64,000 bases of DNA from Promethearchaeota archaeon (lineage in GTDB: Archaea; Asgardarchaeota; Lokiarchaeia; Sigyniarchaeales; SOKP01), in contig JAEOTR010000014.1 of the NCBI GenBank assembly GCA_016839705.1, positions 1 through 64,000 of the forward strand, written 5' to 3'. Below, piece after piece: positions 18,800 to 28,807 of this stretch. Both the position numbers and the translations under genes were made by a program. The notes under the pieces were generated by a model. It made no database searches, was not told the origin of the DNA, and was given only the letters and a program-made list of their open reading frames with translations. How positions within the stretch are numbered: the first letter of the stretch is position 1; each line of letters starts with the position of its first letter.

Positions 18800-19777
18800 A
18801 TGGTTGCAGAAAATATTGAAGATCTAATTACAAAGCAATTAAATTTTACACTACGTGAAACTAACTTTACAACCTTAGGGAAATTATATAAAGGAAAAGT
18901 TCGCGATAATTATATTAAAAATGATAAAAGGATAATTATTGCGACAGACAGGTTATCCGCATTTGATCGAGTTATTACCACTATTCCTTTTAAAGGTCAG
19001 ATGTTAAATCAGATCTCCTCTTTTTGGTTTGATAAAACAAAGGATATGGTAAAAAATCATATCATAAGTATACCCGATCCGAGTGTTTCAGTAGTTCATC
19101 AATGTGAAACCCTCCCGGTAGAAGTAATAATAAGAGCTTATATTACAGGTACTGCATGGCGTAATTATTTAAAAGGTCAACCTACTTCGGGAATAACGTT
19201 ACCAAAAGGATTAGAAAAAAATCAGAAATTAGATGACGTTCTCGTTACCCCTTCTACTAAAGCAGAATCCGGGCATGATATATATATTTCAAAAGAACAG
19301 ATTATTAAGGATAAATTAGTGGAAAGGAATATCTATGAAGAGATGGAGCAAGCAGCATTAAAATTATTTAGGTTTGGACAAGAATATTGTAAGAAAAATG
19401 GTCTTATTATGGTGGATACGAAATATGAATTTGGTATAAAAGACGGTGAGCTTATGTTAATTGATGAAATACATACTCAAGACTCTTCTAGATTTTGGAT
19501 TTTAGATTCCTATGAAAGCAAATTTGAAAACGGAGAAGAACCAGAGATTTTAGACAAGGAGATTTTTAGAGGATGGCTAATGGATACTTATCCCGATATA
19601 TTTCCTGATATCAAACCTGAAGATGACATACCCCCAATATCTGATGATATTAAGATTGAATTAGCAAAAAGATATATGAGAAGTTTTGAAAAAATTACTG
19701 GAATAGAATTTCAAGCTGAAGTTGCAGACGTTAATCAACGAATTCATGATAATTTAAAACAAGCTGATTATTTATAG
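18800..19777 (+). CDS. purC: SAICAR synthase
   Basis: GKVRD, ATDRLSAFD, TPSTKA, VDTKYEFG, DEIHT.DSSRFW. Confidence 0.97.
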   Translation: MVAENIEDLITKQLNFTLRETNFTTLGKLYKGKVRDNYIKNDKRIIIATDRLSAFDRVITTIPFKGQMLNQISSFWFDKTKDMVKNHIISIPDPSVSVVHQCETLPVEVIIRAYITGTAWRNYLKGQPTSGITLPKGLEKNQKLDDVLVTPSTKAESGHDIYISKEQIIKDKLVERNIYEEMEQAALKLFRFGQEYCKKNGLIMVDTKYEFGIKDGELMLIDEIHTQDSSRFWILDSYESKFENGEEPEILDKEIFRGWLMDTYPDIFPDIKPEDDIPPISDDIKIELAKRYMRSFEKITGIEFQAEVADVNQRIHDNLKQADYL

Positions 19778-19823
19778 AAGGGAAGAAAAATTTAAATAAT
19801 AAACAATTGTTTTTTATTATAGT

Positions 19824-20018
19824 ATGCTAGATTTAATTCTTCTGTTTCTTAATTTTCCGCTATTTCTGCTTAGTTTTGTCTTTTTAATACTCGATATTCG
19901 AAATTATAAAGAAAATAAGTATAAAGATCTCAGTACGAATAAATTACCCAAACGGAGTTCTTATAGTTTAGCATGTGGACTTTTAGCATTAATATTAGCT
20001 GTAATTATTAGTTTATAA
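19824..20018 (+). CDS. Small two-TM membrane protein
   Basis: 64 aa, two hydrophobic segments around a basic loop. Confidence 0.5.
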   Translation: MLDLILLFLNFPLFLLSFVFLILDIRNYKENKYKDLSTNKLPKRSSYSLACGLLALILAVIISL

Positions 20019-20250
20019 GAGCGTTATCTGGCTTTCCTTCCATTTCTTTAGCCTATATCTAGATTTTAATTCTTCTGGTTTATGGACTATTAAATCCTAC
20101 AATCATTCATTAAATTATTACAAATAAACTTAATGCAATCGCTCGAAAAATCTAAATTAATAACAAGCTCATGTCGTTTTTGTCGATGGGAATTATTTTT
20201 AAGTTAATAAGAACTAATAAAAATATATACAACGCTATTTCTTCTTGAAG

Positions 20251-20520
20251 ATGACAACCTCTAATTATATAGTCGAAATTATAATGACTAACAAAGAAAT
20301 GGCACGCGACCCCGTAGGTGCAACAATAAAACGAGATCTTCTCGCAAAAAAAGGATATGATATGATTTCAAATGTTCGCAGTGGACAATATCTTCGCATT
20401 CATATTTCTGCTGAAAAGGAAGAACAAGCAAAAGAGATTGTCGAAGATATGTGTAACAAATTAAGGATATTTAACCCTGTTACCCAAAATTTAACAATTT
20501 TGCAAGTATCGAAATCATGA
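20251..20520 (+). CDS. purS: FGAM synthase subunit PurS
   Basis: DPVG, VRSG, NPV motifs; overlaps purQ. Confidence 0.9.
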   Translation: MTTSNYIVEIIMTNKEMARDPVGATIKRDLLAKKGYDMISNVRSGQYLRIHISAEKEEQAKEIVEDMCNKLRIFNPVTQNLTILQVSKS

Positions 20521-21227
20521 ATATAAAAATTGCCGTAATTCAATTTCCGGCTGCCAACTGCGATTTTGATGCCATTCACGTACTAAATAATGTAATGAAT
20601 ATTAAAGCAGATTTAGTGTGGCATAACCATTTTAAAGAGTCACAATATGATGGAGTTGTTTTGCCAGGGGGTTTTTCATTTGGAGATTATCTAAGAGCAG
20701 GAATAATCGCTGCCCACAGCCCTGCAGTCGATGAAGCGAGAATAATGCTTAAAGATGGAAGACCTGTAATAGGAATATGTAATGGTTTTCAGATTCTAAC
20801 AGAAGCCCAATTTCTTCCTGGCGCGTTATTGCGTAATGAGTCCCTCAAGTTTAGTTGTAAATGGGTGAATCTCAAAGTAGAAAATAATAAGACTGCCTTT
20901 ACTAATAAATTGAAAGTAGGCGATGTGATTGATATTCCCATAGCTCATGGAGAAGGACGTTATTATACTGACGATTTAAAGGGATTGAGAGAAAATAATC
21001 AAATTGTTTTTAGATATTCTAATGAGAAAGGGGAATTCGAAAAAGAAGCTAATCCTAATGGTTCATTAGATAATATTGCTGGGGTATGTAATTTAGAACA
21101 TAATTGTATAGGATTGATGCCTCATCCCGAACGTGCGTCAGAAGCAATTCTAAGCCCAAAAGGAACGGAACATGGGAAGTTGATTTTTGAATCCATGATT
21201 GAGTTTATAAAACGGAGGGTATCATAA
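20517..21227 (+). CDS. purQ: FGAM synthase glutaminase subunit PurQ
   Basis: PGGFSFGDYLRAG, GICNGFQ, IAHGEG, NPNGS, MPHPER. Confidence 0.97.
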   Translation: MNIKIAVIQFPAANCDFDAIHVLNNVMNIKADLVWHNHFKESQYDGVVLPGGFSFGDYLRAGIIAAHSPAVDEARIMLKDGRPVIGICNGFQILTEAQFLPGALLRNESLKFSCKWVNLKVENNKTAFTNKLKVGDVIDIPIAHGEGRYYTDDLKGLRENNQIVFRYSNEKGEFEKEANPNGSLDNIAGVCNLEHNCIGLMPHPERASEAILSPKGTEHGKLIFESMIEFIKRRVS

Positions 21228-23473
21228 TGACGAAGGTAAAGCTTGACGGTGAAGATATTGACGTTGAAATGACAGAAGATGAATTTAAAAAAGTTAATGA
21301 TTTATTGAGTAGAGAACCAAACATCACTGAATTAGGGATGTTTGATGTTATGTGGAGTGAACATTGTTCTTATAAATCATCACGTCCCAAATTAAAATTA
21401 TTTGAGGATGCGGAGGCAAATTATGATTATGTTTTAGCGGGCCCGGGACAAGACGCAGGTGTTATCGATATTGGTGATGGGTATGCTCTAGCGTTCAGAA
21501 TTGAATCCCACAATCACCCTTCAGCTATTGAACCTTATCATGGTGCTGCCACGGGAATCGGTGGAATAATAAGAGATATTTTATGCATGGGTGTTCGACC
21601 AATCGCTCTTTTAGATCCCTTGAGATTTGGGCGTTTAAAAGGCAATCCCCACTCACAGTGGCTGTTTAAATATGTTGTAAAAGGTATTGCGGATTATGGG
21701 AATTGTACAGGAATTCCTACTATTGGAGGGGAAGTTGAGTTTGATGACAGTTTTGAAAGCAACTGCATTGTAAATGTAGCTTGCATAGGTTTGGGAACAA
21801 TTGAAGATTTTAAACATGCGCCAAGTAGAGCTTATAACCCGGGTGATTATTTAATTTTAATGGGAGGATCGACTGGTAGAGATGGAATCCATGGAGTAAC
21901 CTTTGCTTCACGTACGCTAACAGAGATGTCTGAGACTGATAGACCCGCTGTTCAAATTGGTGATCCTTTTATAAAGAAGATGATTATTGAAGCTACTTTA
22001 GAAGCTGTTAAAACGGGATATGTAAGAGGCTTAAAGGATCTTGGAGGAGGGGGCTTAACATGTGCAACTAGTGAATTGACAGGTGACGGGAACACTGGGG
22101 CAAAAGTTGATTTAAAAAAAGTTTTTACTAGAGAACCTGGCATGAATTCTTATGAAATTATGCTTTCTGAATCACAGGAACGAATGGCTTTCATAGTAAA
22201 ACCTGACGGATTAGAAGATATTCTTGATATCTTTACAAAATATGAAATGAATTTTGCTGTAATTGGTAGAACAGATGATTCTAAAGTTCTAAAGGTCTTT
22301 GATGATGAAAAACTGGTAGTAAATATCCCTGCAAAAGCTCTTTCTGAATCACCAACTATTAAACGCGAAGAGAAACGACCTTCCTACTTAGATGAATTAT
22401 TAACCCAAAAAACTCCTGAACCAAATTTGGATTTAGATGAAATAATTTATAAATTAATTGCATCAGAAAATATATGTAGTAAAGAATGGGTTTATCGACA
22501 ATATGATCATGAAGTGGGGGTAAGATCAGTTGTTAAGTGTGGGGAAGGAGATTCTGGAGTTTTAAGAGTCATTGGTACTGATAAATTTATTGCTGCGAGT
22601 GTTGGTGTTAATTCAAAACATTGTTTCTTAGATCCTTATGAAGGGGCAAAAGGGGGATTAGTTGAAGAATGTGGAAATGTAATATCAAACGGTGCTAAAC
22701 CATTGGCGATGGTAAATTGTTGCAATTTTGGAAATCCTGAAATCCCGGAATCATTTTGGTATTTTTCTAAAGCTGTTCAAGGTATGAATGATTTTTGTAG
22801 AGCTCTAAAAATACCTATAGTAGGTGGAAATGTATCATTCTATAACGAAGACGATGTAAAAAAGACCGCGATTAAAGCTACTCCTGAGATTATGATAGTG
22901 GGTATAATTGAAGGTGAAAAGAAAATTATTACTCTCCCTTTTAAGGAGGTGGGGAATGATGTTTTTCTGATTGGGGAAACTAAAGCTGAATTAGGAGGAT
23001 CTGAATACCATTCTGTTATTCACAACCTAGAAGGTGGTAAACCTCCGATTGTAAATGAAGAGATAATACAAAATAGATGGGATTTTCTTTTTGAATTATA
23101 TAATAGAAATCTGGTGAAAGCAAATCATGATGTTAACAAGGGGGGTATTCTAATTACTATTTCAGAGATGTGCTTTAAAAATAAATTGGGAGTTGATCTT
23201 GATTTTGCTGATTGTTATAATGAACATCTAAGAGATGACGAATTTCTATTTAGTGAGTCAGTGGGTAGATTTATTATTGAAACCAGCCCAGAAGATCATG
23301 ATCTTATACTAGACTTAGCTAAAGAGTTTAATATAAATGTAAAAAAAATTGGTTTATTGATTTCTAAACCTATAATTAGCGTAAGTGGACTAAAATCTGA
23401 CCAATTCAATCTCAACTTAGATAAAATGAAGGAATTATATGACTCTACAATACCAAACTTGATGGAAATTTAA
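21227..23473 (+). CDS. purL: FGAM synthase subunit PurL
   Basis: WSEHCSYKSS, ESHNHPS, DLGGGG, SESQER, GGNVSFYN. Confidence 0.97.
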   Translation: MTKVKLDGEDIDVEMTEDEFKKVNDLLSREPNITELGMFDVMWSEHCSYKSSRPKLKLFEDAEANYDYVLAGPGQDAGVIDIGDGYALAFRIESHNHPSAIEPYHGAATGIGGIIRDILCMGVRPIALLDPLRFGRLKGNPHSQWLFKYVVKGIADYGNCTGIPTIGGEVEFDDSFESNCIVNVACIGLGTIEDFKHAPSRAYNPGDYLILMGGSTGRDGIHGVTFASRTLTEMSETDRPAVQIGDPFIKKMIIEATLEAVKTGYVRGLKDLGGGGLTCATSELTGDGNTGAKVDLKKVFTREPGMNSYEIMLSESQERMAFIVKPDGLEDILDIFTKYEMNFAVIGRTDDSKVLKVFDDEKLVVNIPAKALSESPTIKREEKRPSYLDELLTQKTPEPNLDLDEIIYKLIASENICSKEWVYRQYDHEVGVRSVVKCGEGDSGVLRVIGTDKFIAASVGVNSKHCFLDPYEGAKGGLVEECGNVISNGAKPLAMVNCCNFGNPEIPESFWYFSKAVQGMNDFCRALKIPIVGGNVSFYNEDDVKKTAIKATPEIMIVGIIEGEKKIITLPFKEVGNDVFLIGETKAELGGSEYHSVIHNLEGGKPPIVNEEIIQNRWDFLFELYNRNLVKANHDVNKGGILITISEMCFKNKLGVDLDFADCYNEHLRDDEFLFSESVGRFIIETSPEDHDLILDLAKEFNINVKKIGLLISKPIISVSGLKSDQFNLNLDKMKELYDSTIPNLMEI

Positions 23474-23878: not shown

Positions 23879-24165
23879 TATTCTTTAGAGTTTGGTATTT
23901 TCTTACTTATTTTTAAATGATTGTTTACATTTCTGAAATTAATTAAATTTTAATAGGAATATTATCTTTGGAATCTAGGAAATGTCCAAATCTAATATGA
24001 GCAACTTATATAAAACTCTCTTTTAATATAAGAATAGGTACCCAAACCAGTAAATTACATAAAAAGATTCATGCAGAAAGGAGATTTAAGCAAAAATCAA
24101 ATAATGAAAGAACTGGAGGATACTTGTTTATAAATTCAAAAAGAAAAAACTCTGACGAAAATAAT

Positions 24166-24639
24166 ATGCAGGAGATTAAAAAGAAGTGTGATTTTTTAAA
24201 GCACTTATTTGACATAATAAATGATGGCGCTACGGGATTTGAACTAGCTTATGAAGTTGAGAAAAATCTAGAAGTTAAAAGTTTAATTTATGATGGCATT
24301 TTGTTTTACAACACATTTATAGAAATTGGGAGTAAGAAATTTCTGGATGTTCCTGATAAAGTTAAAAAAGATTATCAATCTTTTAAAACAATTGAAGATA
24401 CTGAAAAATTTATATTTATGGTATGGTTAAAAGATACAATCACCACACTGGAGAAAAAAATCCAACCTAAAGAGGATTATGCGAAATTTGTTGAAGCTAA
24501 AAAGGCCCAAGAGATAAGGGAAGCTATGGAGAAATTACACAAAAGACTGACTCATTGTAAAAATTGTGGGGCACAGATTCGAAGTAAAAAACAATTATTA
24601 TGTGAGGGATGTGGAGAAATCCTTATGGAAGGTATTTAA
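24166..24639 (+). CDS. Hypothetical protein with C-terminal zinc ribbon
   Basis: CKNCG...CEGCG after a coiled-coil-like helix. ATG 24166 (track start TTG 24124). Confidence 0.65.
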   Translation: MQEIKKKCDFLKHLFDIINDGATGFELAYEVEKNLEVKSLIYDGILFYNTFIEIGSKKFLDVPDKVKKDYQSFKTIEDTEKFIFMVWLKDTITTLEKKIQPKEDYAKFVEAKKAQEIREAMEKLHKRLTHCKNCGAQIRSKKQLLCEGCGEILMEGI

Positions 24640-24734: not shown

Positions 24735-26204
24735 TTAACTTTCAATCTTGGTACCACACCATTTACAGAACTTTTCTGTTTCTGTGAGTTTACTCCCACA
24801 CAATGAACAGGTTTTTGCGCTTGCGGGGGTTATTACATCAGAGCTTACAGTCTGTCTCCCTTCCACTTTCCCCCCACATTTAGGGCAAAATTTTGAATCA
24901 CTATGCAGTGTAGCACCGCAACGAATACAATTAAGTTCTGTGATTGGAGCTTTCTTGTATGGGGATCCTTTAGTCCCTTTAGCAGGCGTTTTCTCAGGTT
25001 CTTTAAGCTTGAGCTTTTTTTGACCTCTTCTTGAGACAACTGCTGCGATTATTACAATTGCAACGACTCCTAGGATAATCCAAAAGATCCATTGTATATC
25101 AATCCATCTCTCAGTAGAAGATTTCCCCGTATCATAACTCACATCGAAAGTAATGGTTGTAGATTCCTCGGGTGAATTCATTGGATCAAAATAAATGAAG
25201 AAATACCAATTTCCTGCTTTAGGAACATAAAAAGTTTCACCTAATATATCTTTTGTTTCATTTCTATGAAAATCCATTAGAGTGAAATCTACAACTCCAC
25301 TTTCTGTGAAATTTACGGTAAAGTCAACATCAACGCTTGTCCCCCCATCGTTATACCAAACCACATAATAGTCATTTGCACTCGGTATTGCTAGAGATCC
25401 TGTGTCGCCATTAGTATTTGGCTCATCTACATAAAAAGATGGTGAACCTCCTTGATCCCATAAATAAAGATCATTACCATCTCCAATGAAGAAATCTACT
25501 AGTCCAGATGTGTTAAAGACATAATCTATTGATGATCCGGGTCTTAAGAAAAACCAAAGGTATTCATATTCATTATTAAGGAGATTAATTGAACCGATTT
25601 CGGTGGTAAGGAAAGATCTCGTGGGTACAGATTCAAATGGACGATCATCAATACCAAAGTTTATATCAGCTATAGAAGATTGGATTCTATTAATCGTGAT
25701 GCCATTATCTTTTTCAATATATTCAAATTCATACCAGAATTCATTATAATACAATGTCTCTGTGGAACGATATGACACATTACCATTCACATCTGCATCG
25801 CTAAACGGGAACAAGAATGCAACACCTGCTATTGGAAGCAAAATTAGAGCTAAGGTGATTACAAGTACAACACCTCCACCAACATATACCGGAGAATAAT
25901 ACCAAGGACGATAATAATGTCCTGCCCACCATGGATTATACCACCAACGGTAATACCAAGGTCGATGGTACCACCACCAGGGTCTATAATATCTACGATG
26001 TGGTCTATATCCTCTGTGAGAATAAGGTCCGGATCTTGATGTTACTCGAGAAGCACCCGTCCTCCCAAATGGTCTCCCACTTGGTCTACCATAACCACTC
26101 CGACCTCCGAATCCACCACCGCGAAAACCACCACCTCTGAATCCACCTCCACCACCGCGAAAACCACCACCGCCTCGGAATCCACCTCCACCTCCTCTAG
26201 GCAT
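24735..26204 (-). CDS. Two-TM protein: RGG/aromatic low-complexity N-terminus, APD1-4-like extracytoplasmic beta domain, C-terminal double zinc ribbon
   Basis: FRGG repeats, W/Y-rich tract, two hydrophobic segments, four CxxCG motifs. Confidence 0.7.
   Translation of the reverse strand: MPRGGGGGFRGGGGFRGGGGGFRGGGFRGGGFGGRSGYGRPSGRPFGRTGASRVTSRSGPYSHRGYRPHRRYYRPWWWYHRPWYYRWWYNPWWAGHYYRPWYYSPVYVGGGVVLVITLALILLPIAGVAFLFPFSDADVNGNVSYRSTETLYYNEFWYEFEYIEKDNGITINRIQSSIADINFGIDDRPFESVPTRSFLTTEIGSINLLNNEYEYLWFFLRPGSSIDYVFNTSGLVDFFIGDGNDLYLWDQGGSPSFYVDEPNTNGDTGSLAIPSANDYYVVWYNDGGTSVDVDFTVNFTESGVVDFTLMDFHRNETKDILGETFYVPKAGNWYFFIYFDPMNSPEESTTITFDVSYDTGKSSTERWIDIQWIFWIILGVVAIVIIAAVVSRRGQKKLKLKEPEKTPAKGTKGSPYKKAPITELNCIRCGATLHSDSKFCPKCGGKVEGRQTVSSDVITPASAKTCSLCGSKLTETEKFCKWCGTKIES
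26095..26201 (-). repeat. Coding low-complexity GGT/GGA repeat encoding GGG(G)FR units
   Basis: Repeated CCACC units on the + strand; GC-rich patch in AT-rich DNA. Confidence 0.8.
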
Positions 26205-26206
26205 TT

Positions 26207-27217
26207 TTAACTTGCCACCTCTTTCTTCATAGATTCAACAGTTTCCTTTTCCCTAAAGATGTAATCTCTATTTATGGCTAGTAATACTAGAATCATTGAT
26301 AAAATTGACAATGTTAATCCAATGCTATCAATTGTTATAATAGGTTTAGGGATTGCAGTTGCAAAAGCAATACCAAACAAAATCCACTCAAAAACCATAA
26401 AGAACACAAAAAGTCCAGGAATTATTGTCCTCACAATTCTACCCGTTTGCAAGTTTCTGGTGTCAGAAAAGCTCACGTATATTATGGAGAACAAACAGAT
26501 TATTCCAAAAATCAATAAGAATATGCTAAATATCGCTATTACAATCCATATTGGATGGAGTCTGCCTATTTCAAGAAAAGGTGCTATTATACTTAAACTC
26601 CTAGCTTCAAACAAATAGTAGGTTACTTTTCCACCTCCAGTCAAAATAGACCCCAACAAGCTCCAAAGATCATCTGAACTCCCGGAAAAAAAGCCATATA
26701 CCCCAGTAAGTGGTAGAATAATACCCAAAGTAAATGCTAGTATAACACATACGCTAGCAAACCAAAATTCGGCAACCCTTGTATTTCTTACGGGAATTAA
26801 TCCAATTTCATCTACGTTCTGATCAGGTATGTAACTCCAACAATCTTGGATGGTACTTACTCCAATCAATTTTCCATTCTCAACTACAGGAACTACATTT
26901 ACATTTAAATCACGCATACGTGTAAATGCTTCCACAACTGGCGTGTTTAGGGATACAGGTGTAATATTATACATTGTACTAAGAATTTTCTCAGATTTTG
27001 AGTCTTTTCCTTCTGCTACAATATTCTGTACGATATCAATATCTGCGATAACACCAAGAACTTTTTGTGCCTCTCCTTCAACTACAACCAAATCTGGAAC
27101 CCCTAGTTCTTTCATTTTTTTAGCTGCTTCTTGAATTGTTGCTTTTGAGTCAATTATGCCATATTCATCATCGATGACAAGATCTTTTACAAAATATTCT
27201 TTTTTAGTTAATGTCAT
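26207..27217 (-). CDS. CBS-pair protein with four C-terminal TM helices
   Basis: Tandem CBS motifs (LVVV..VLGVI..DI; VPVVENGKLIGV) followed by hydrophobic helices; 2-nt gap to the downstream gene. Confidence 0.8.
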   Translation of the reverse strand: MTLTKKEYFVKDLVIDDEYGIIDSKATIQEAAKKMKELGVPDLVVVEGEAQKVLGVIADIDIVQNIVAEGKDSKSEKILSTMYNITPVSLNTPVVEAFTRMRDLNVNVVPVVENGKLIGVSTIQDCWSYIPDQNVDEIGLIPVRNTRVAEFWFASVCVILAFTLGIILPLTGVYGFFSGSSDDLWSLLGSILTGGGKVTYYLFEARSLSIIAPFLEIGRLHPIWIVIAIFSIFLLIFGIICLFSIIYVSFSDTRNLQTGRIVRTIIPGLFVFFMVFEWILFGIAFATAIPKPIITIDSIGLTLSILSMILVLLAINRDYIFREKETVESMKKEVAS

Positions 27218-28234: not shown

Positions 28235-28807
28235 CTACCCAATAACATGAAAATCCTTTACACTTATAAGAGAATGAACTCTAATCAAATGATCTTTCTC
28301 AAAATCCGCAAGATTATCCATTGATCTATCAACAAAAATAAATAAATCTTTAACCTTAGCTCCTTCTTCTCTCAATGCATTTATCGCAAAGAGTTTACTA
28401 AAACCACTGGAGATTAAATCATCAACTAAAAGAATTTTTTGCCCTTTTTTGATTTTTCCTTCAACCATTTTCTTGAGTCCGTGCTTTTTTGGCTCTTTTC
28501 TTAAAATATAAAATGGTTTGTGGAGTTGATTAGCAATCATTGTACCGAAAGGTATACCTGCGAGAGGTATAGCAACTACGCCCTCAAAATCAATGTTTTT
28601 TTTTATATAATCGACTGCAAAGTTAACTATTTTTTCAAATGCTTCCGGAAAATTAGGAATGACTCGCAAATCTATATAATATTGAGATTTTTCACCAGAT
28701 GCTAGGGTAAAATCACCGAATTTCAGTGCACCGGTTTCTTTTAAAATTTTAATTATAATTTCTTTGATATATGCATTACCTTTTCGTTTATTTTTTTCAA
28801 GTATCAT
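28235..28807 (-). CDS. pyrE: Orotate phosphoribosyltransferase
   Basis: FGDFTLASG.KS.YYID, RKEPKKHG, VDDLISSG. Confidence 0.93.
   Translation of the reverse strand: MILEKNKRKGNAYIKEIIIKILKETGALKFGDFTLASGEKSQYYIDLRVIPNFPEAFEKIVNFAVDYIKKNIDFEGVVAIPLAGIPFGTMIANQLHKPFYILRKEPKKHGLKKMVEGKIKKGQKILLVDDLISSGFSKLFAINALREEGAKVKDLFIFVDRSMDNLADFEKDHLIRVHSLISVKDFHVIG

Follow-up and report, generated by a model that had tools for sequence, protein, structure and literature searches.

Plant APD1-4 proteins are membrane RING-HC E3 ligases (PMC13210498, PMC6118397). The locus analysed here raises the question of whether an Asgard archaeon encodes a counterpart of these proteins, as a sequence-only reading of the DNA had proposed, and whether such a counterpart is itself a ligase. 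The gene (24735..26204) lies on the minus strand of the window, the 64-kb stretch of DNA that was analysed, as do the features and the partner gene for which coordinates are given below, and it is present as a single copy in its own genome, which the names of its homologues assign to the Lokiarchaeia (Promethearchaeota). Its ORF encodes a membrane protein of 489 aa with two TM helices, hereafter the query, for which 288 homologues were retrieved at E<=0.001; it belongs to type A, one of two Asgard subfamilies of APD-like proteins that we distinguish.

The protein begins with a cytoplasmic tail of RGG and GF repeats (residues 1-40; 26085..26204), followed by an Arg/Tyr/Trp/Pro-rich juxtamembrane segment delimited by column conservation (residues 41-107; 25884..26084) and by TM1 (residues about 110-134 by hydropathy; 25803..25877), which the structural model gives as a helix at 105-131. 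After the outer region comes TM2 (residues about 370-391 by hydropathy; 25032..25097), and just past it, at residue 392, begins the basic stop-transfer stretch RRGQKK. The cytoplasmic C-terminus carries a double zinc ribbon (Pfam DZR, 39.5 bits against a cut-off of 27.3; residues 426-484, 24753..24929), with four CxxC(G) motifs at residues 426, 440, 466 and 480. TM1, the beta-rich outer region, TM2 with its basic stretch and the four CxxC motifs, as listed in the sequence-only reading, are all present by hydropathy, sequence and Pfam DZR; missing from that reading were the RGG/aromatic N-tail and a coupled upstream CBS gene. The ectodomain is acidic (39 D+E against 10 K+R) and contains 4 sequons, and homologues average 2.9 sequons in the ectodomain against 0.3 in the tails, which supports the placing of both termini inside the cell. 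An arrangement of two TM helices flanking the outer region, with cytoplasmic termini, fits hydropathy, the charge and sequon bias, and the model.

An AlphaFold model, built with 111 homologues, has a pLDDT of >90 over the ectodomain and shows one beta sandwich (residues 197-305) inserted into another (140-193 + 306-362). The outer, membrane-proximal sandwich is GOLD-like, and its N-terminal half (25626..25787) and C-terminal half (25119..25289) were delimited by model and HHalign, with conservation as additional evidence; the inner, distal GOLD domain (25290..25616) was delimited by model, structure match and HHalign. When the split outer domain of type A was compared with the inner domain, HHalign gave a probability of 91.6-98%. 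Model and alignment together bear out the earlier suspicion of nested or duplicated beta sandwiches, which had been prompted by a second strand set that starts at residue 327.

The inner domain superimposes on the GOLD domain of p24beta1 with Z 12.7 and rmsd 1.4 over 87 aligned aa; p24 GOLD was the top match among solved structures, and Foldseek matched TMED1 at E 2.5e-5. The ectodomain profile found no sequence match in the PDB, and Foldseek rows for birnavirus VP2 and other jelly rolls were dropped (rmsd 14-16). GOLD domains of the inner type also stand alone, singly or in tandem, in other prokaryotes, with bacterial and Thermoplasmatota clusters in the Atlas, and GOLD domains occur in methanogens, that is, in non-Asgard archaea (PMC10936438). 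By itself, the inner domain is a generic GOLD fold. The type A ectodomain was also seen, as read from sequence, behind a TPR-like region in a fusion protein of 875 aa (P0121) and as an insertion within a 652-aa secreted protein that is beta-propeller-like (P0122).

In a survey of 301 Asgard genomes, type A was found in 75. Of the 69 genomes in the query's own family 50 have it, as do 6 of the 7 in the sister family, 18 of the 21 Hodarchaeales (a label that rests on Ca. Hodarchaeum mangrovi among the matches) and one genome elsewhere. The type A pair on contig G286:C264 (L017) is very near to the Loki sequences; its genome, which belongs to another class, shows 8% contamination, and the finding points to misbinning or recent transfer. 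Type B proteins have a shorter, diverged outer domain. They were found in two other heimdallarchaeial families, one Kariarchaeaceae-like (members L047, L050-L054, L060, L109-L114; P0217, P0223, P0291-P0293), with 7 of the 12 genomes positive in one family and 2 of the 3 in the other, although some of these matches are partial; some Loki also carry type B as a second gene. Family f16 would, by sequence likeness, be the Kariarchaeaceae. Two closed genomes, one of 4.3 Mb and one of 6.0 Mb, contain the type A orthologue with its CBS gene; we take them to be those of the cultured Promethearchaeum syntrophicum and Ca. Lokiarchaeum ossiferum. One further contig carries four tandem, strongly diverged type A-like paralogues that have neither RGG tail nor CBS neighbour (L134:3759-10088), and an ABC gene that flanks them has its best matches within the heimdallarchaeial genomes searched, at 60-61%, in Hodarchaeales.

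The partner gene (26207..27217) encodes a 336-aa protein with a CBS pair (Pfam) and four predicted TM helices, hereafter CBS-4TM, and its stop lies 2 nt before the query ATG. In all loci examined, in Loki and Hodarchaeales, the CBS-4TM gene adjoins type A at a spacing of -14 to +10 nt; it is present in 74 of the 75 type A genomes. The two gene sets disagree in four cases, all of them fragmented assemblies. In the two heimdallarchaeial families, most type B genes have upstream a gene for a CBS-only protein of 133-155 aa with no TM helices, and the Loki type B copies, like the four-paralogue tandem array, have no CBS neighbour. Members of both subfamilies, and of two classes, are thus linked to a CBS pair, with the reservation that kin are non-independent samples. 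A complex prediction for query residues 78-489 with CBS-4TM scored 0.09 against a mark of 0.32 and was counted neither way. A promoter scan was at chance level.

A convergent 171-aa ORF ending in a zinc ribbon (window 24124-24639) is kept downstream in only 5 other loci, all of close relatives, and is therefore not regarded as part of the module; beyond it lies an ordinary purine biosynthesis cluster (18800-23473; purC, purS, purQ and purL from their sequences), and a pyrE-like gene lies at 28235-28807. In one lineage only, a CBS and type B pair has two genes for proteasome subunits 1.6 kb upstream of it (L111:2536-3946).

The reading that we favour, tentatively, is that the query serves as receptor or adaptor in a two-gene membrane module under CBS regulation and is not a ligase itself. 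The distal, faster-evolving GOLD domain would bind an outside ligand or membrane cargo, like the GOLD domains of p24 proteins. Contacts within the module, either with the CBS-4TM protein or between copies of the query, would be made by the proximal GOLD, which is conserved, by the TM helices and by the aromatic segment. The CBS pair may read the adenylate level and so gate the module, the RGG tail and DZR would recruit cytoplasmic partners, and a ubiquitin link, if any, would be made in trans. Among the folded parts, conservation is lowest in the inner GOLD (0.60 in close and 0.48 in diverse homologues) and stands at 0.78/0.64 in the N-terminal half of the outer domain; a variable distal and a conserved proximal GOLD fit the former meeting ligands and the latter a fixed partner. 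The four diverged tandem copies on the Hodarchaeales-like contig, similarly, fit receptor diversification. The receptor roles, whether in ligand binding, partner binding or gating, are all ones that we infer.

The most conserved region of the family is the N-tail (0.74-0.85 overall), within which the juxtamembrane segment, modelled at low pLDDT, scores 0.82 when close homologues are compared and 0.74 when diverse ones are, values that rank with the highest in the protein. The 107-residue tail of the query has 19 K+R and no D or E, the start MPRGG is shared by 95 of 111 homologues, with a median of 5 RGG, and the query is the only ATG-started ORF with at least three RGG in its own genome. The RGG boxes of fibrillarin, Gar1 and nucleolin bind RNA, and the conservation of the tail, its retention in type B and amoebozoan homologues and its status as the sole RGG-rich ORF of the genome could all be accommodated if the protein were a membrane anchor for RNA or condensates, its RGG and aromatic tail tethering RNA or ribonucleoproteins under regulation by the ectodomain and the CBS protein. 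We nevertheless consider this unlikely: RNA-related gene neighbours were absent at the loci examined, amoebozoan tails are Gly/His-rich and not Arg-rich, the RGG part is gone from the divergent paralogues of Hodarchaeales type, and acidic lipids would be an equally good target for a basic aromatic tail.

The near-perfect co-occurrence and adjacency with CBS-4TM would also be expected if the CBS-4TM protein formed a CBS-gated channel or transporter and the query were its accessory subunit, and CBS pairs are known to regulate the CLC, MgtE and CNNM transport proteins. This proposal is rather improbable, because the CBS partner of type B lacks TM helices, so that the conserved link is with the CBS pair and not with a pore; in addition, the 4-TM part of the partner matched no transporter family in Pfam. 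The receptor module remains our preferred account of the pair, and its relation to the eukaryotic proteins is considered next.

Type A aligned with eukaryotic APD profiles at an HHalign probability of 99.0% (E 3e-18), and with richer profiles the alignment was collinear over 193 of 231 ectodomain columns, running through both outer halves. The inner domain alone matched its eukaryotic APD equivalent at 99.1-99.2% (E about 1e-18), and a profile of the eukaryotic inner domain scored type A at a median of 47 bits, as against 27 for single GOLD-like matches. A search of 1.84 billion proteins with the type A profile retrieved about 20 eukaryotic-type proteins, the best at E 8e-7 (amoebozoan, mollusc); those named come from Pellita, Balamuthia, Cochliopodium and Dreissena, and all seven that were scanned pass one or both APD cut-offs.

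In Pfam, APD1-4_N matched the query at 13-15 bits (E 0.016-0.087), under its gathering cut-off of 27 bits; out of 65 type A homologues, 28 matched it with E<=0.05, mostly under the cut-off, the best of them reaching 5e-7. APD1-4_M (cut-off 25 bits) did not match the query and matched one of the 65 at E 0.025. The sequence-only reading had likened one segment (25314-25574, residues 211-297) to the middle domain of APD1-4; its likeness to APD holds, the segment corresponding mostly to APD1-4_N, with only its end at the start of APD1-4_M. In structure, the nearest non-self fold in the Atlas was a cluster of plant APD1-4, which aligned over 186 residues with rmsd 4.8 and a TM of 0.44 by target, as against 95-115 residues aligned with single-domain prokaryotic rows, and the GOLD fold was matched as well. 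The plant comparison rests on this Atlas row, on Pfam and on published papers, and word-based searches with the eukaryote and type B alignments returned 4 and 7 proteins with no plant APD among them. Pfam scans of genomes are too insensitive to establish absence, since PF16040 was silent in the query's own genome, controls included, and PF16041 put no Asgard genome over its cut-off.

Both the profile evidence, with HHalign at 99% and 28 of 65 homologues matching APD1-4_N, and the structural neighbourhood thus show that the kinship is real. Common ancestry of the whole nested architecture with eukaryotic APD is very probable, and the APD family probably predates eukaryotes. Homologues were found in eukaryotes and Asgard archaea, and a plasmid search gave no match. 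Among 139 representatives, matches over both outer halves are Asgard or eukaryotic wherever the source is named, several having no taxon, and the rest match in the inner domain only, single or in tandem. These data support a candidate eukaryotic-signature protein for the nested two-TM architecture, as had been suggested; the concern that the match might be to a generic GOLD fold holds for the inner domain but not for the nested two-TM form, which among the representatives with a named source has so far been seen only in Asgard archaea and eukaryotes.

The query is not, however, the closest Asgard counterpart of eukaryotic APD. Type B aligns with eukaryotes at 99.9-100% (HHalign) over about 190-207 columns, with 97% for the outer domain alone; two type B proteins (P0223, P0291) pass both APD Pfam cut-offs, and a third (P0293) passes that of APD1-4_M. 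In a 203-column tree, with type A set as outgroup and P0253 left out, type A lies on one side of a branch supported at 100/99, and type B and eukaryotes lie mixed in an open polytomy opposite; because of this polytomy, no Asgard sister of eukaryotes can be named. A tree of the inner domain (104 columns, quick method) left the groups mostly unresolved. As judged from sequence, then, type A is a sister subfamily, paralogous to eukaryotic APD, and type B is the Asgard group closer to eukaryotic APD. Automatic annotation has already labelled one type B protein accordingly: P0292 bears the NCBI name 'E3 ubiquitin-protein ligase APD1-4 domain-containing protein, Ca. Kariarchaeaceae archaeon'.

On present alignments, the weak point of the kinship is the outer domain. 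That of type A matches its own inner domain at 98%, but the eukaryotic outer domain at only 17.5% over 82 columns (P 0.0014, with 0.9% for the reversed control); against the outer domain of type B it scores 1.6%, which is no match. Proteins with an RGG tail and two TM helices but a single GOLD have also been observed (P0182, P0245, P0207), and in the inner-domain tree they fall inside the type A clade with an SH-aLRT of 96. Together with the occurrence of GOLD in bacteria and non-Asgard archaea (PMC10936438), these findings would suit a history in which the likeness to APD reflects the shared GOLD fold only and type A became nested independently, from a single-GOLD RGG membrane protein. Such a history is quite improbable, given that types A and B share the insertion point, flanking motifs, RGG tail, C-terminal zinc ribbon and upstream CBS gene, and that the alignment of type A with eukaryotes crosses both outer halves. 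We therefore retain common ancestry of the nested form, of which type A, by retaining the internal repeat, shows how the APD ectodomain arose.

Only DZR and other zinc-ribbon families matched the query in Pfam, with no match to RING, U-box or HECT, and a RING pattern search of its ORF found none. In Hodarchaeales, 20 distinct orthologous sequences carry the DZR and, in addition, a C-terminal RING-like finger with Asp or His, not Cys, at the second ligand. A model of this finger (pLDDT about 80) matched aS34 at Z 6.9, the ZZ domain of Nbr1 at 6.2 and RNF4 at 5.8, so that RING, ZZ and aS34 matches tie at Z 5-7; the best Foldseek match was RING1B (E 0.006), and Pfam zf-RING_4 matched at E 1.5e-4, below its cut-off. 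For aS34, the top match and a protein of the ribosome, no ligase activity has been demonstrated (PMC11698992). Finger matches numbered 11 and 4 in two Hodarchaeales genomes of the same genus, and none was found in the query's genome or in two other Asgard genomes. The finger was also seen in Hodarchaeales as a mobile C-terminal module on single-TM secreted-type proteins (L037:5893-6066, L146-L157). In the 203-column tree the finger-bearing orthologues nest inside type A, and the finger therefore looks like a local addition; its mobility and this nesting speak against an ancestral RING that was lost in the query.

The sequence-only reading had placed a zinc ribbon in the position of the RING. 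Since DZR and finger stand side by side in the 20 Hodarchaeales sequences, the DZR does not replace the RING, and none of 21 non-plant eukaryotic homologues sampled, some of them partial, has a RING pattern. The DZR pattern was found on 26 ORFs of the query's genome, 19 of them with a TM helix. By sequence, the ribbons of the query lack the Thr-Phe pair, the motif of ubiquitin-binding NZF fingers. Three mollusc-type proteins (P0257, P0276, P0277) have three to four PPxY motifs in the C-tail, and PPxY motifs recruit Nedd4-type ligases; one of the single-GOLD proteins (P0207; L136:6001-7125) carries a C-terminal zinc ribbon and a RING over the zf-RING_2 cut-off. Coupling of the scaffold to ligase-like modules three separate times, and again in P0207, suggests an old ubiquitin link. 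The link itself may have been gained separately, through the RING in plants, PPxY in molluscs and some other eukaryotes, and the mobile RING-like finger in Hodarchaeales.

No ubiquitin-system gene lies next to the query within the 64-kb window. Coupling to ubiquitin in trans is possible, since its genome has genes for ubiquitin and E2 and a cascade of Asgard E1, E2 and RING proteins is functional in vitro (10.1101/2023.07.25.550441). Of the proposed Asgard counterpart of a receptor/ligase, the kinship with APD therefore stands and the ligase reading falls: lacking the RING-HC, the query fails membership of the APD E3 ligases and yet belongs to the wider APD-domain family. That the query is itself a membrane E3 ligase with the DZR doing the job of the RING, as first proposed, is very improbable, for although plant APD1-4 are RING E3s (PMC13210498, PMC6118397), Hodarchaeales orthologues add a RING-like finger and Asgard cascades function in vitro (10.1101/2023.07.25.550441), the query has no RING pattern or Pfam match, DZR and finger occur together in 20 distinct Hodarchaeales sequences, the ribbon type is common (26 ORFs) and the Thr-Phe pair is missing.

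The membrane receptors or cargo that would feed the working ubiquitin and ESCRT machinery of Asgard archaea are largely unknown, and the type A family is a concrete candidate; its presence in two closed genomes, possibly of cultured strains, means that it may be testable. A search of the available literature found no paper linking APD1-4, or its Pfam ids, with Asgard archaea, and in the accessible part of a structure-based study of eukaryotic-signature proteins (PMC12962969), the preprint supplements, neither APD nor GOLD is mentioned. Plant APD1-4 can be reframed, with the GOLD-in-GOLD ectodomain as the conserved core and the RING looking like a later addition. As a speculation that in its entirety is unlikely to hold, APD may be an unrecognised eukaryotic signature family, the Asgard ancestor having had a CBS-regulated two-pass GOLD-in-GOLD receptor with a Gly-rich cytoplasmic tail, which picked out surface cargo for ubiquitin/ESCRT sorting via ligases acting in trans, and plants, molluscs and Hodarchaeales having later hard-wired the link in three ways.

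Likeness to the RING/ZZ cross-brace fingers (aS34, RING1B, RNF4, Not4) extends only to the Hodarchaeales orthologues, the query having no finger. With the p24/TMED cargo receptors it shares a GOLD fold outside the membrane (Z 11-13). The p24 proteins are single-pass, with a signal peptide, one GOLD domain, a coiled coil and a short coat-binding tail, whereas the query has two nested GOLDs, two TM helices and long tails (107 aa at the N-terminus and 98 aa at the C-terminus), with no coiled coil in the model. Type B is like the query in its RGG tail, two TM helices, nested ectodomain and C-terminal zinc ribbon and, in heimdallarchaeial loci, mostly in its upstream CBS gene, and differs in having a shorter, eukaryote-like outer domain, one ribbon and a CBS partner without TM helices. 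Non-plant eukaryotic APD proteins (Pellita, Balamuthia, Cochliopodium, Dreissena, Mya) share the order TM, nested ectodomain, TM and the lack of a RING, and their amoebozoan members, like the query, start with a Gly-rich cytoplasmic N-tail, although it is Gly/His-rich there and Arg-rich in the query; their C-tails are Pro/Tyr-rich, with up to four PPxY in molluscs, and have no zinc ribbon, and their outer domain has two cysteines that type A lacks.

The plant APD1-4 proteins (PF16040 + PF16041), described in Arabidopsis by Luo et al. (2012) as cited in PMC13210498 and PMC6118397, have substrates that are not known (PMC13210498). The query departs from them in having no RING-HC, a DZR instead of the ligase domain, an RGG/aromatic N-tail and a coupled CBS gene, in scoring under both Pfam cut-offs, and in an outer domain that is still a recognisable copy of the inner one. 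Common to both are the two TM helices, the nested double sandwich, the homologous inner domain and a zinc-binding C-terminus.
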